Assembly (NCBI GenBank): GCA_030390025.1
Contig: CM059429.1
Span: 18,104,001 to 18,168,000, forward strand
DNA from: Squalus acanthias
Lineage: Eukaryota
DNA: 64,000 nucleotides
Direction: 5' to 3'
The notes below the pieces were generated by a model. The model made no database searches, was not told where the DNA came from, and saw only the letters and a program-made list of their open reading frames with translations. Positions 3,001 through 60,208 of this stretch are shown piece after piece; the stretch's first letter is position 1, and each line of letters starts with the position of its first letter. The position numbers were made by a program, and so were the translations under genes.

Positions 3001-5879
3001 CTCACAAGCTGTAAATTGGTTATTTTACAATACGATTACTTAGGAGTTTCTATTACACTGTGTTTACGTTTTGGGAAACATTTATATATTGCAACGTGCG
3101 TAAGCACTGTGTCCTTTTCTAGGGACTGTCACTTGCGACTGAGAAATTGCTCGAAAGACAACGGACAAACTGACACCAAGGTGGGGGCTTAACCAGGTAA
3201 TGCAGCAGCACATGTACAAATCCCAGTCTAAGCCTGCAGTGTGAAGCCCTGGAGGCTGAAATACAAACGTGTCAACACTCACAGATCCACATTACATTCT
3301 TCTCTATTACACGTTAGAGCTTTGGGTGAAAAATAACTCCAAATCGTGCTGGTTATTAACTCAGTTTTTGATTCCGAGTGATGGTCTGAGACAGGGGTTC
3401 AACATTATGGCAGATGTAAATAATATGGGCATAAACAGAAAGGAAAATGCCAGCAATTGAAACACTTATTGTAGATAATGAGAAAAATATACTGCGTTAT
3501 GCAGCTTTTAATGCAACTTTAATCTAGCCTTCGTTGTACAGCATTAAAATATTCTAAAGCCTTTACTACCTACATTTGAAATGACTACTCAATAGTGAAT
3601 ATGAGTTAATTACATTTTTTGCATTATCTGAATGGCGTGTCTTCAGCTAATTTACGTTTTGGGGTTTAGTGTTTACAAATTCAGCGAGCCCTTCATTATA
3701 TTTAACTTGCTACGACTGCAGAGAATTGTTTTGAACAACTGTGTGATCTTTTTTTCCCACCGCCATACCCCTACCCCTCCCCCACGTGTTCTCATCTGAT
3801 CATACTTTTTTTTAACCATTTTTCTTTCTTGTTCGGAGTGTTTGCCTGTCTCTGGATATGTTCCTCGCACATATATAGCATTGCCTACGTCTTTCTGCTT
3901 CTTATTTTTCTCCCACCTTAAATTTGCACTTTCTCTTCCCCCCCCCACCCACCCCCCCCCCCCCCCCCCCCACCAATCCCATAAATTTCTGCCCACGCTA
4001 TTGCTCCCACCTCCCTTTCAAAAACCTACCTTTTTCTCTTTCTTGTATTGTAGGTCTGCTGTGCGCTAGACTGCAGGCTTCAAGCCCTGTCGCAGATCAG
4101 CTTAGGACGGCGGCCTAAATCCACGGATATCGCAGCACCAGGTTTCCGTTCCCCCTTTAGCTCTCTTGCTGAACAATCTAAAGGGCTACAACGTACATAT
4201 TTGAGTTAGTAGCCCGTTTTGTCATTCTCCTCCTCCCTGAAAAATAAAGTCTAAACTACTTTTTACGTACATGGCGAGATGGTTAGACAGACGTATGTAC
4301 TCAGGACGAGTTAAACCGACGATGTGCACTGAGGACAAGTTACAGTTGCAGACATAAGACTATATATTGGGAGGAGGGATTGTGGCTAGCAGTACGTTCT
4401 GGTATTAGAAGAAAAATATGAAAACGTGAGGCTGATATTGCGAGCGGAGTTCGGTCTAAACAGCCTCTCATTCATGTGTGTACGGAGACGCATACAAGCC
4501 ACTGGCAATCTATCATTGCGCTATCTTTCTCTATGCCTCCCGATAGTCCACTACAGTTTACTTTTTTCTCCCCCAGCGATGCGAGTTTCCAATTCGCAGA
4601 TTACACAGTGTTTATAGATTCTCGAGGCACGGTGTCGGATCGCCTTCACAGACTGTGTCTTGGAATTGGAAACACGTTTTTTTTTAAAAACTGCAATGCA
4701 CGTTTGCATCCATGTGATGCAGGCGGTAATTCAAATCTCTTGACAATCTGTCGAAACAAAGTATTGAAACAAAAAAAAACTTGCCAAGCCTAAGAAAATA
4801 AAAGTATCTCCCCGCCCCATCCCACACCCCTCCACGAGAGCCACAACTTCCCCGGATTTTGACTTACAGAATTACCAACCCGGGACTGCAGGCAAGGGAA
4901 CTCAGTAAGTTCGTACATGCTGAGCAAAGTTTCAGACTCAGTCTCGGGGAGAGAAAAAAAAAGTTAACAGATGCCTTTGACTGGGGATCTCTTTGATCGT
5001 CTGCGCCGCTAAGAACAACCAGCCGTCTGATTTTGTCAAAAAAACATAACACGCCTGGAAGTCGGCTGGTGTCAGGAGAGATAAAAATCACTAACTAATT
5101 TCCCGCCTGAGCATAACAGGCCATAACCTCATTTTCAGTTCAGTGCTGTCTGTGCCTTCCTTCTTTCCCACAAAAAACTAAATTCTTGCATAAGCCGCAG
5201 GAGCTGGTGTGGATAAATAAAGGGGTGTGCGGGGCACGGTGCGAGATATTACTAAGTAGATGGCCGGCTCGATGGAAGGATAAACTTTCCAACGCTTCCA
5301 ACTGTATATTTGTTCGTGAAACAAACACCCCATAAATTATCAAATCCTGCTGCAATACACTTTTTCGCTGTCCTCTTCAGCCTGATAGACGGTTCCATAT
5401 CAATACCATCATAAAAGTGCGAGTAGATGTCTATTAATAAGCAGCGGATCTAATTTAATTTCATAATGTAAGGAAACTTTAAAAATATATAGATAGATAA
5501 ATAATTAAGGAGTAACCTTCACCAGAACCGTTAAATCCTGTCCCAATCCATCGTTGGTTGATGGATCTTATTGTCTTCCCCCTCCCCTCAACACTCCAAG
5601 AAATGAATTACAAAATGATCAAGTGTCTAACGTAGAGGGTAAAAAAACACTAAACATTCACTCTTTGCGGTAAAAAAAAATCCCGCTCAGATCAACTTTT
5701 AAAATCTGCATTGTTGTTATTTAAGGAAAAGTGGCCTTCAGCAGCAGAAAATCTGTTAAAACGAGCTTACAAAACAGTTACAAGGTTTTGCTAATAAAAT
5801 TAGTATGTTGCAAGAAACCAACAAAACAAAACCCACATCCTGCAGCCAAAAAAGACTTTTCTGTGTTCTCTTCAACACC

Positions 5880-6169
5880 CCTCTCCCCCCCCCCACCCCC
5901 GGTGTAATACGCATGTGCCCTGACTGGGGTCCGTAACTGGCGCTGTCAATCATCGGAAACTGACCAATGAGATTGCGTGTTGCTCGCGGAGCTCGACGGG
6001 CTGCAAAGCTGTTCATGAATCTCAATTCAGTTTCTCAATGCGTCCTGCTGCTGCTATCCGTCTGCACTCTCTACACCGAATGGCTATCCACGTTGGCAAA
6101 GAGCGAGTTTCTAAAGTTCGGTAACTTAAAAAAAAAGTTTCTTTTATTATTTTCCTGCTGTCAGGCATT
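5880..6169 (+). promoter_or_regulatory. Proximal CpG-rich promoter/5' leader of zic4 with CCAAT box
   Basis: CCAAT at 5964-5968, adjacent CAAT-like motifs (5947, 5971), CGGAA at 5954, a C-rich tract at 5877-5900 and a local CpG cluster just upstream of the ATG. Confidence 0.55.
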
Positions 6170-7331
6170 ATGAGCATGGATGCTTTGGGGAGTCCGATGA
6201 TGGACCCATCATTCGCCAAAAGAAACCCAGCGCTGAGATTAGTAGATTTGGCAGGAGCTCACCACCATCATCATCACCATCCCCCTCAGAGTATGACAGG
6301 CTTCCCGGGGCTCAGCGGCCATCCCCACTCAATGGCACACACGCACCCTGGGGAGAGTACTGGAGAACCCCGCCTGGGGCCGAGTCCATTCGGGCCTGAA
6401 CACATGGGGCACCCTGCAGCCGCTGCTGCGCTTAAACTCAGCCCAACCCATCCCCACCACCATCACCACCATCATCATCACCATCATATGGCAGGCCACG
6501 CTGAGGTTGTCTCCAATCCAACGGCAGCTTTTGGCCCAGCGCAGGCAGCAGCAGCAGTCAGTTACTCGGTCTCGCACTCCCACGCCAGCTATACTGCCCA
6601 GGCTATCTCGGCAGGTAGAGACTTCCTCATCCGCAGAGATCTGACATCCTCAGTCATGCCTGGGCTCACTGATCAATATCCTGGCACAAGTTCTCACCAC
6701 GGAATGTTTGTATCAACAACAGGTAGCTACCCCGGACACCATGGTCACCCCGAGGCTGGAAGCCACTCTTTATTCCCTGGACTCCATGATCAGGCTCCCC
6801 ATGCAGCCCCAACTGGACACCATCTGAACGGACAGTTAAGACTGGGGCTACCTGGAGACATGTACGCCAGGTCTGAGCACTACAGCCAAGTGGCAAGTTC
6901 CAGGAGTGATCCCTTTGCCTCTTCCCCTCTACATGGCTACGGTGGCATGAATATTAACATGAACTTAACTGCCCACCACGGTCCAGGTGCATTCTTTCGC
7001 TACATGAGACAACCCATCAAGCAGGAACTGATCTGCAAGTGGACTGAACCGGACCCTGTCACTAAAAAGCCATGCTCAAAAACTTTTAGCACGATGCACG
7101 AACTGGTTACTCACGTAACAGTGGAACACGTTGGGGGACCAGAGCAGTCGAATCATATCTGCTTCTGGGAAGAGTGTCCAAGAGAGGGAAAGGCTTTCAA
7201 AGCCAAATATAAACTTGTAAATCACATCAGAGTCCACACTGGCGAGAAACCATTCCCCTGTCCATTCCCTGGCTGCGGCAAAGTCTTTGCCAGATCAGAA
7301 AATCTCAAGATCCACAAAAGAACTCACACAG
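6170..7331 (+). CDS. zic4: Zic4 zinc-finger transcription factor, first coding exon (poly-His tracts, ZOC-like motif, ZF-NC region, ZF1-ZF3)
   Basis: ATG at 6170. The N-terminus [37 protein letters not shown] is typical of fish Zic4. [14 protein letters not shown] is the Zic ZF-NC motif and is followed by Zic fingers up to KIHKRTHT. A phase-1 donor ACAG|GTCAGT lies at 7331/7332, the conserved Zic intron position between ZF3 and ZF4. Confidence 0.96.
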
Positions 7332-10478: not shown

Positions 10479-10915
10479 GAGAAAAACCCTTCAAATGCGA
10501 GTTTGAAGGCTGTGACAGACGTTTTGCTAACAGCAGCGACAGGAAAAAGCACTCTCATGTGCATACAAGTGACAAGCCCTATAACTGCAAAATAAGAGGC
10601 TGTGATAAATCGTACACGCACCCCAGTTCCCTTCGTAAGCACATGAAGGTCCACTGCAAATCTCCTCCTCCCAGCTCGGGCTACGAATCCTCCACCCCTT
10701 CGCTGGTATCTCCTTCTTCGGACTCAGGCCGGGACCCCCCGGCTTCAGCCTCCCAGCTTGACCCCATCACATCTTCCCACGCAGCTAACCTGAGCGAATG
10801 GTATGTGTGTCAAAGCACAGGAGCAAGTGGTATTCCAACACCTCCAAGCAATTCTTCATCACCTGGACCAGGAGAGCACGCTTACAGAAACTCTGACCCC
10901 AGAACTATTCACTAA
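10479..10915 (+). CDS. zic4: Zic4 second coding exon (ZF4, ZF5, C-terminus; long unspliced-tail form)
   Basis: Acceptor ttttcttttAG|GA at 10477-10478 restores HT-G-EKPF. The exon encodes [32 protein letters not shown]...[28 protein letters not shown], and SPPPSSGY is Zic4-diagnostic. Stop TAA at 10913-10915. Joined CDS is 1599 nt = 532 aa. Confidence 0.95.
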
Positions 10916-52403: not shown

Positions 52404-52741
52404 CTTTAGAAACTTTAGAAAGAATGTGCCTATAATTTTACTACATATAGTGCACGGGAGAAGGTTTCCCCCTCCCTCTTAGGAACATTGACAAGTACAG
52501 GACCAGAAATACTCAACCACGTTAATCTTCTTTGCTACACTGTAGCTGCTGTGAGGACACGTGGCCAAGTATGTTATGTTCACAATTCCAAAGCCAAAGG
52601 TTGGTTGGGGTTGGGTGGGGTGGGGGAGGGTTAAGCGTATTATATTGGGATAATCAGTTTCCCTAAAATTTTCAGACTAAAGTGGGCATTGTATGTTATA
52701 CACGGGTATGTTATCATTGAAAATTTATGCATGGTAAAAAA

Positions 52742-53356
52742 GTTTAGTATACTGTATTCGCTGCTCACCATGCGGTCTCCTTTACATTGGGGAGACCAAA
52801 CGTAGATTGGGTGATCGCTTTGTGGAACATCTCTGTTCAGTCCATAAGGGTGACCCCGAGCTTCCGGTCGCTTGTCACTTTAATTTTCCACTCCACTCCC
52901 ACTCTGACCTCTCTGTCGTCGGCCTCTTACACTGTTCCAGTGAAGCTCAACGTAAGCTCGAGGAACAGCACCACATCTTTCGATTAGGCACTTTACAGCC
53001 TTCTGGACTCAACATTCAGTTCAACAATTTCAGACCATAACCTCTGCCCCTATTTTTTCAGGCGACAGCTTGTTGATGATTCTGCCATCCCTATTGAAAC
53101 ATTTAACCACTCCTGCCTTCCACTCTATCACAGACCGTCCCTTTTGTTCCTTCCTCCCTTCCCCCCTTTCCCTGCCTCTGCACCTGCTTAAAATCTGTTA
53201 CATCTCTAACCTTTTTCCAGTTCTGACGAAGGGTTACTGAGCTGAAACGTTAACTCTGTTTCTCTCTCCACGGATGCTGCCTGACCTGTGGAGTGTTTCC
53301 AGCATTTTCTACTGTTATTTCAGATTTCCAGCATCTGCAGTATTTTGCTGTTGTAT
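52742..53356 (+). mobile_element. Penelope-like retroelement fragment (GIY-YIG endonuclease C-terminus plus 3' region)
   Basis: The frame from 52744 reads LVYCIRCSPCGLLYIGETKRRLGDRFVEH...EEQHHIFRLGTLQPSGLN, the PLE GIY-YIG signature (VYxIxCxxC, YIGET, R..EH, P.GLN). Stop at 53038-53040. Confidence 0.9.
53219..53255 (+). ncRNA. Minimal type I hammerhead ribozyme motif (PLE-associated, partly decayed)
   Basis: AGTT-CTGACGA-A-GGGTT-ACT-GAGCT-GAAA-CG-TT-AACT. It has the CUGANGA and GAAA cores, stem I AGTT/AACT, a palindromic ACGT stem III and a GUU triplet. Stem II has a G-G mismatch. Confidence 0.7.
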
Positions 53357-59324: not shown

Positions 59325-60208
59325 GGGTAGATTTTTAAGAACATAAAAACATAAGAAATAGGAGCAGGAATAGGTCACTTGGCCCCTCGAGCCTGCTCCG
59401 CCATTCAATAAGATCATGGCTGATCTTGGGCTCAAAGCCACTTCCCTGCCCGCTCCCCATAACCCTTCACTCCCTTATCTTGCAAAAATCTGTCTATCTC
59501 CACCGTAAATGTATTTAATCACCCAGCCTCCACGGCTCTCTGGGGCAGAGAAGTCCACAGATTTAGGACCCTCTGAGAGAAGAAATTCCTCCTCATCTCA
59601 GTTCTAAAAGGGCGACCCTTTATTCTGAAACTATGCCCCCGAGTTCTAGATTTCCCCACGAGGGGAAATATCCTCTCTGCATCCACCTTGTCGAGCCCCC
59701 TCAGTATTTCATATGTTTCAATAAGATCACCTCTCACTCTTCTAAATTCTAATGAGTATAGGCCCAACCTGCTCAACCTTTCTTCATAAGTCAACCCCCT
59801 GATCTCTGGAATTAACCTAGTGAATCGTCTCTGAACTGCCTCCAATGCAAGTATATCGTTCCTTAAATAAGGAGACCAAAACTGTACGCAGTACTCAAGG
59901 TGTGGTCTCACCAATACCCTGTACAGTTGTAGCAAGACTTCCCTGCTTTTATACTCCAACCCCCTTGAAATAAAGGCCAACATTCCATTTGCCTTTTTGA
60001 TTACTTGCTGTACCTGCATGCTAACTTTTTGTGTTTCATGCACAAGGACCCCCAGGTCCCTCTGAACTGTAGCATTGTTGATCAGTCACCCGTGATAGGA
60101 TCCACCCGACTTTCAGTTCCAGTGGAAATGAAATCAGGTGGTTTCTGTGATGGGCGGTCGATCCACAATGCCAGTTTTATGCCCGGGTAACAAGTTGAAA
60201 ATCTACCC
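59325..60208. mobile_element. Palindromic MITE interrupted by the CR1 insertion
   Basis: Left TIR GGGTAGATTTT at 59325-59335 and right TIR AAAATCTACCC at 60198-60208. Hairpin core 60080-60164 is centred on TTCCA-G-TGGAA. The TIR is the same as in the 49152-49403 element. Confidence 0.62.
59337..60076 (-). mobile_element. 5'-truncated CR1 LINE (ORF2 C-terminus, 3' UTR, octamer tail)
   Basis: ORF 60043-59519 has KKANGMLAFISRG, LYRVLVRPHLEYCVQFWSP, YEERL, RRVRGDLIE, RTRGH, FFSQRVLNLW (classic CR1 ORF2). The tail reads TTCTTATG-TTTTTATG-TTCTT. Confidence 0.95.

Follow-up and report, generated by a model that had tools for sequence, protein, structure and literature searches.

A working internal splice acceptor in zic4 of Squalus acanthias and a candidate exitron spanning its ZOC-like motif

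The long first coding exon of a shark zic4 gene contains 108 nt that start with GT, end with AG and encode a ZOC-like motif. Two questions arise from this arrangement, namely whether the segment is removed by splicing as an optional intron within the coding exon (an exitron), and whether its acceptor can account for ZIC4 proteins without ZOC in mammals. Both were raised by an original prediction made from sequence alone on a window of 64,000 nt from Squalus acanthias (GenBank assembly GCA_030390025.1, contig CM059429.1, positions 18,104,001 to 18,168,000, forward strand), which envisaged an ancient acceptor acting as a ZOC on/off switch. Coordinates below are positions in the window unless a locus is named, and a slash within a sequence marks a splice junction.

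The zic4 locus and its 108-nt segment

The coding exons of the gene are as follows.

6170-7331, + strand: long first coding exon of zic4, encoding the N-terminus, His runs, the ZOC-like motif, ZF-NC and zinc fingers 1-3
10479-10915, + strand: last coding exon of zic4, encoding zinc fingers 4-5 and the C-terminus with LSEWYV

The gene is ZIC4, which belongs to vertebrate Zic subclass B. Residues 1-280 share 96% identity with catshark ZIC4-like X1, and the product has a ZIC-type first finger (Pfam zf_ZIC at residues 278-322, E 3e-27) together with a C2H2 array. A ZIC1-like exon (L004, its paralog name being our own reading of its sequence) lies on the opposite strand ~7 kb ahead of the window, apparently head to head with zic4. 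A metagenome scan yielded one teleost DNA locus only (L001), and this served for comparison. The strongest synonymous conservation between shark and teleost in the exon falls at 6326-6410, where 15/15 scored codons are identical against 169/295 exon-wide, and an overlapping regulatory element is possibly present there. An in-frame deletion of 12 letters at 6946 was seen in a contig of one related organism (run X11), and ray and skate proteins are also shorter at this place. Elsewhere in the window, open frames at 52738-53040 (+) and 59519-60085 (-) resemble retrotransposon fragments, which we take to be GIY-YIG-like and reverse-transcriptase-like.

The 108-nt segment and its signals are the following.

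6615-6722, + strand: exitron candidate, 108 nt (36 codons), in-frame, stop-free, GT-AG
6612-6620, + strand: internal donor CAG/GTAGAG, in codons for Ala-Gly-Arg; CAG/GTAGGG in teleost L001
6617-6637, + strand: ZOC-like motif RDFLIRR, inside the 108-nt segment
6691-6697, + strand: putative branch-point-like TTCTCAC (A at 6696), conserved as TCTCAC in teleost L001
6697-6722, + strand: internal acceptor region, doubling as codons HGMFVSTTG; partner of at least two upstream donors in the contigs, with further donors in gene models

The sequence features on which the prediction was built are all present, comprising the donor GCAG/GTAGAG at 6614/6615, the acceptor CAACAACAG/GT with its AG at 6721-6722, the TTCTCAC motif with its A at 6696, and a length of 108 nt with phase 1 at both junctions. 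The polypyrimidine tract, described as weak, indeed contains 45% pyrimidine, compared with three further zic4 acceptors at 65%, 80% and 85%. The AG at 6721-6722 is the first one downstream of the branch-like A6696, and 7/11 letters of the donor agree with the U1 consensus. As expected of an exitron, the segment thus combines GT-AG ends, a branch-like motif and a weak tract, and it lies inside a coding exon whose retained form (long models P0002 and P0123-P0125) is free of stop codons through 6615-6722. In teleost L001, CAG/GTAGGG, TCTCAC and CAACAACAG/GT recur at equal spacing, so that the GT and AG, which the prediction required to be kept in other fish, are both intact in this one locus.

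The co-occurrence of donor, branch motif and acceptor exceeds chance, the three being found jointly in 0.23% of sequences when the exon was recoded synonymously 20,000 times (4.2% for the donor by itself and 31% for the acceptor) in a test that was devised after the sites had been seen. A single GT-AG pair in exon 1 would be unremarkable because three in-frame AG/GTR...YAG/G pairs of 60-400 nt occur there, and conservation is what sets 6615-6722 apart from the other pairs. The same seven letters, CAGGTAG, stand at both junctions of the segment, a direct repeat that is seen in shark and teleost and was absent from the original account. No stable hairpin was found when the region was compared with shuffled sequences (z +1.18 in the shark, +1.33 in the teleost).

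The 108-nt region has no Pfam domain. Its RDFLIRR conforms, as RDFL-I-RR, to the wider ZOC consensus RDFL-(1-2)-RR given in PMC2988786, which 59/102 retained ZIC4 entries match strictly. The older consensus (S/T)RDFLxxxR does not fit, since G precedes the R and D replaces the last R. ZOC-like motifs in Xenopus Zic4 and mouse Zic5 were already listed in 2010 (PMC2988786), and a 2020 paper classed subclass B, including ZIC4, as being without ZOC (PMC7403390).

Use of the acceptor and of the cut in cartilaginous fish

Of 24 sequencing runs listed, eight were placed on 6495-7000; all are contigs, with RNA origin presumed or uncertain, and the uncovered parts of X2, X5 and X14 were excluded as evidence. 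The elements that bear on use of the acceptor by upstream exons are listed below.

3123-3196, + strand: upstream exon, donor CAG/GTAATG at 3196/3197 joined to 6723; matched by X1, with like ends in X4 and X5 (start 3123 placed from an AG and a sawfish model)
4054-4204, + strand: upstream exon of 151 nt, donor TGA/GTTAGT joined to 6723; like ends in X2 (152 loose letters) and X14
5967-6120, + strand: front of the proximal exon, donor 6120/6121 joined to 6723 in three shark gene models (LKFG/SYPG; P0122, P0127, P0131)
6741-6827, + strand: 28-codon frame from an out-of-frame ATG in CACCATGG context (context from 6737), 18 nt past the acceptor
6860-6862, + strand: first in-frame ATG past the acceptor (MYARS), at which ray and skate models P0126 and P0135 start

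Contig pieces with a loose end starting at 6720 or 6723 were found in 5/8 runs (X1, X2, X4, X5, X14), representing five organisms and studies. In X1, which is the closest run, the loose ends are identical to 3169-3193 and 4175-4204, and in the window GT donors (CAG/GTAATG and GTTAGT) follow; those of X2, X4, X5 and X14, compared by eye, correspond to the same two exons with few changes. At least two upstream exons therefore splice to 6723. A second donor of the first exon, at 3180/3181, is used in a sawfish model, and P0134 maps to 3129-3182. No 6120-6723 loose end was seen in the contigs examined, which were placed on 6495-7000, a region that 5967-6120 lies outside. The AG at 6721-6722 is accordingly a working acceptor for upstream exons, at the same codon position from sharks to humans. 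The prediction had called this acceptor ancient, and the upstream-exon junctions in 5/8 runs bear this out; that it is ancient and identical to the placental acceptor discussed below is, in our assessment, highly probable.

Since the 4054-4204 exon is open in the zic4 frame and has no ATG, and the exon ending at 3196 has a stop codon in the frame continued at 6723, Met 6860 is the likely start of upstream-exon transcripts in this shark. The 28-codon frame at 6741-6827 ends ahead of Met 6860 and could damp translation of these transcripts. On a visual resemblance, the 4054-4204 exon was considered as a homologue of the tetrapod exon encoding MRYKTSL and rejected, as it ranked 76 of 16,062 and 34 of 16,032 frames. 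Nothing in the 17 kb upstream convincingly matched the N-termini of short forms from teleosts, frogs and amniotes. The start of a short sawfish isoform agrees at 11/11 residues with L008:6043-6075, which may represent an additional upstream exon of zic4, lying ~4 kb ahead of the window in the direction of zic1.

The 108-nt cut itself was not recovered in the shark contigs. The check proposed with the prediction, a search of shark RNA for 6614-6723 junctions, gave none in the 8 runs; contigs lose rare forms, and the result therefore says no more than that the cut form does not predominate in these runs. The retained form is intact in 5/8 runs (X1, X3, X4, X11, X13, of which X11 is probably DNA). 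A piece of X2 ending at 6622 was discarded as a cut form, its single difference fitting the 6619 change seen in X3 from the same organism. Among 15 listed cartilaginous-fish entries of a 32-member cluster, seven retain the segment, one (manta ray) shows the exact cut, five splice another donor to the acceptor and two begin at MYARS. The variants listed from related contigs spare GT and AG, and the one at the donor (6619 A>G) shifts it towards the consensus. None of the 35 variable sites among three related contigs falls within 6683-6734 (chance 0.013). Taken together, we put the occurrence of the cut in this shark at slightly better than even, and the exitron is probably minor here.

The cut in other jawed vertebrates and the ZOC-less ZIC4 of placentals

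A total of 410 proteins were fetched, the entries being interrelated and the counts hence not independent. The sorting was corrected by hand: P0048, P0061 and P0360 were moved out of the cut set and P0117, P0327 and P0330 into it, three Xenopus entries were moved to ZIC4 and P0404 to ZIC5, and P0076, P0195, P0197, P0339 and partial entries were left out. The segment is missing, at the same junction, from 67 ZIC4 entries that have a proximal N-terminus, compared with 102 counted as retaining it; most of this support for the cut comes from automatic gene models, which are interrelated and may borrow introns from protein alignments. Entries of the cut form include manta ray, many ray-finned fish, coelacanth, frogs, turtles, snakes, birds and marsupials, so the predicted short protein is present in gene models from ray to marsupials. 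Same-species pairs, from 10 species including coelacanth, gar, tarpon, sterlet, seahorse, tailed frog, two Xenopus species and opossum, differ in 11/11 cases by a single clean deletion that begins at the ZOC Arg and runs to TTG (34, 36 or 37 residues). The cut keeps the same two codons despite differing inner sequence and length, and some species are represented in the listed entries by the cut form only (P0132, P0147, P0148). P0117, a teleost protein from a Logan contig, lacks the segment and derives from spliced RNA because it also crosses the constitutive intron; the cut is here an assembled path.

ZIC5, which has a like segment, served as a control, and there the segment is missing in 1/75 entries. 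The Gly that supplies G/GT ahead of the ZOC Arg is present in 98/101 scorable retained ZIC4 entries versus 15/74 ZIC5 entries, and the Ala-Gly pair that spells CAG/GT before ZOC in 93/101 ZIC4 entries; Ser or Thr is the usual residue there in ZIC5 and ZIC1/3. Synonymous conservation between shark and teleost at the acceptor is borderline (12/15 vs 169/295 overall, p 0.056), and that at the donor is not elevated (6/9, p 0.38). The donor codon is Asp in a tegu entry, and two galliform entries with a decayed ZOC are without the donor Gly (P0068, P0070, P0051), possibly as separate losses. On balance we consider it likely that the cut reflects true splicing in jawed vertebrates.

Among the paralogs of this shark, the zic5-like locus (L006 around 1510-1640) has CAG/GT at the acceptor and GC at the donor, zic1-, zic3- and zic6-like loci have neither splice site at the matching codons, and the zic2-like locus L007 gave no motif match. 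A medaka zic5 model without the paralogous segment (P0192, GYSSS/AYGH) is the only zic5 model that hints at a shared origin. The acceptor might predate the zic4/zic5 split.

Opossum models comprise retained (602 and 519 aa) and cut (566 and 483 aa) forms, as well as short forms whose MRYKTSL start is joined to the acceptor (418 and 335 aa). By comparison, 0/69 scorable placental entries (of 72) carry ZOC or the motifs of the long N-terminus, and 58 have an upstream-exon start, the coding exon concerned having counterparts in frog, turtle and bird models. An opossum long N-terminus query returned no placental protein among 107 matches, in a search of proteins of 331-1054 aa. Nine placental entries, eight of them rodent models and one a contig read-through clustering with cetacean, read LFVS(T/P)TG/SS. 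As LFVS(T/P)TG corresponds to the last intron codons of the shark, the placental and human junction falls on the shark acceptor; the expectation that the human ZIC4 junction lies at this point is thus supported by the protein comparison and by the FVSTTG/SS read-throughs. The long N-terminus with RDFL also occurs in acorn-worm Zic and hagfish entries, and the long form is therefore likely ancestral.

The further suggestion that fixation of this acceptor explains the ZOC-less mammalian ZIC4 holds in part. The acceptor is the same, but the loss is placental rather than mammalian, as the form with ZOC is still present in opossum models, and it did not come about by fixing the 108-nt cut. Placental ZIC4 instead joins an upstream exon to the acceptor, which drops the entire N-terminus of ~185 residues. 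The old acceptor is thus the likely explanation of why placentals make only a shortened ZIC4, and the protein comparisons suggest that the proximal exon has likely decayed in this group.

At the other end of the protein, LSEWYV is written ...GAATG/GTATGT (10790-10806), with a donor-like site at 10800/10801. Fifty-five fetched ZIC4-type entries, including human, marsupials, birds, turtles, a lizard and two amphibians, stop exactly at the E of EWYV and 149 continue with WYV; no such end occurs among the 15 listed cartilaginous-fish entries. According to PMC4564895, ZIC4 lacks the conserved C-terminal motif. A second internal splice choice may remove this motif.

Competing explanations and implications

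The reading that we favour, and regard as fairly likely as a whole, combines a working ancient acceptor, a true in-frame exitron in jawed vertebrates that is probably minor in this shark, and a placental route through the same acceptor. Transcripts from the proximal start would mostly be read through, giving full-length ZIC4 with the ZOC-like motif, as in the retained contigs, and some would be spliced from the weak donor at 6614 to the acceptor, losing only the 36 motif-bearing residues, as in models from other species and one fish contig. Transcripts from upstream exons, whose junctions were seen, would use the same acceptor and lose the entire N-terminus. The proximal exon would thus be dual, serving as a first exon or, from 6723, as an internal exon of upstream transcripts, and there would be three products, namely full length with ZOC, full length without ZOC and N-terminally short. 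In placentals the proximal coding part would have decayed and the upstream-exon route alone survived, yielding ZIC4 without ZOC, with the codons FVSTTG persisting as a 3' splice site. A stronger version, in which a regulated ZOC on/off exitron has existed since the jawed-vertebrate ancestor, the same dual-coding acceptor let placentals discard the N-terminus, which would make the ZOC-less subclass B ZIC4 a placental novelty, and a second donor may trim the C-terminus, is tentative, and we would not presently bet on it.

Three other explanations were weighed against this reading. The 7-nt repeat in both shark and teleost, with the joint absent from all 8 runs of contigs, could mean that the acceptor is real and the cut a reverse-transcription jump between CAGGTAG copies that annotation accepted as GT-AG. 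PMC8240250 treats direct repeats as marks of such artefacts and gives them at ~75% of reported tumour exitrons versus ~25% of annotated introns; the artefacts that it lists were filtered to lack canonical sites. The falsitron in CD19 exon 2 (PMC8240250) resembles the zic4 cut in being a short in-exon deletion between direct repeats (8 nt in CD19, 7 nt here); zic4 differs in its canonical GT-AG, its used acceptor, its conserved position and the lack of a stable hairpin. No stable fold would bring the ends together, the 3' end is a proven acceptor, the same two codons are used though the inside varies in sequence and length, and in P0117 the cut is an assembled path. Both ends of true introns, moreover, tend to read CAG/GT. 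We judge an artefact quite unlikely.

A real but roleless splice, arising as a tolerated by-product when the acceptor pairs with a nearby weak donor, would agree with the want of excess synonymous conservation at that donor, with its low or absent use in cartilaginous-fish contigs and with its loss in the tegu and galliform entries. The Ala-Gly pair before ZOC, kept in 93/101 ZIC4 entries and mostly Ser or Thr in ZIC5 and ZIC1/3, and the species with only cut forms among listed entries (P0132, P0147, P0148) speak against it, and on this evidence a mere by-product is unlikely. The absence of the joint from 8 runs, together with the single cut form among 15 listed cartilaginous-fish entries, would also follow if the cut were confined to bony vertebrates and the manta-ray model had been projected from bony-fish proteins. 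This last view is very improbable given that shark and teleost sites are equal nearly letter for letter and that variants in related contigs spare the GT and AG, with 6619 A>G nearing the consensus.

Exitrons are an established class in Arabidopsis and human (Marquez et al. 2015, PMC4484396). As in the cases treated there, the zic4 candidate is an optional, stop-free intron of a coding exon, a multiple of three in length, with weak sites, and removes a short linear motif. Unlike them, it ends at an acceptor that upstream exons also use as their regular one, its exon is both first and internal, and gene models keep the candidate across jawed vertebrates. The same event at the same codons is already predicted by ZIC4 isoform pairs in RefSeq/Ensembl (coelacanth X1/X2, 525/489; opossum X1/X2, 602/566), which are automatic models without description. 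The cut is thus probably one more exitron of a known class whose isoforms are already in databases. The available parts of two accounts of ZOC (PMC7403390, PMC2988786) make no mention of a ZIC4 motif being spliced out or of a route to its placental loss. A literature search, whose coverage stopped short of some likely Zic domain, Xenopus and medaka papers, found no description of the cut, the isoforms or the placental route. Earlier papers on Zic domains and on Xenopus and medaka zic4 may already mention the isoforms.

What the cut would do can be gauged from other family members. The Zic2 ZOC binds a partner and boosts activity (PMC2988786), and ZIC3 without ZOC raises or lowers reporter output depending on context (PMC7403390). 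By analogy with this ZIC2 and ZIC3 work, the ZIC4 forms may differ in partner binding or activation strength. That the cut is a regulated switch with a function is nevertheless a doubtful proposition at present, more conjecture than expectation. The locus offers a clean test of ZOC function, as a silent change at one Gly codon removes the donor.

ZIC4 is deleted together with ZIC1 in Dandy-Walker malformation (PMC4564895). Our results suggest that the absence of ZOC from ZIC4 is a placental condition and that one gene can yield three N-terminal forms in fish, frogs, reptiles and marsupials, which affects how zic4 experiments in fish and frog are read against those in mouse and human. The account of placental ZIC4 would be revised to a loss of ZOC by way of an old, dual-use acceptor. 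More generally, this locus would provide a traceable route to domain loss in a transcription factor, in which an old internal acceptor comes first and the bypassed coding part decays later.
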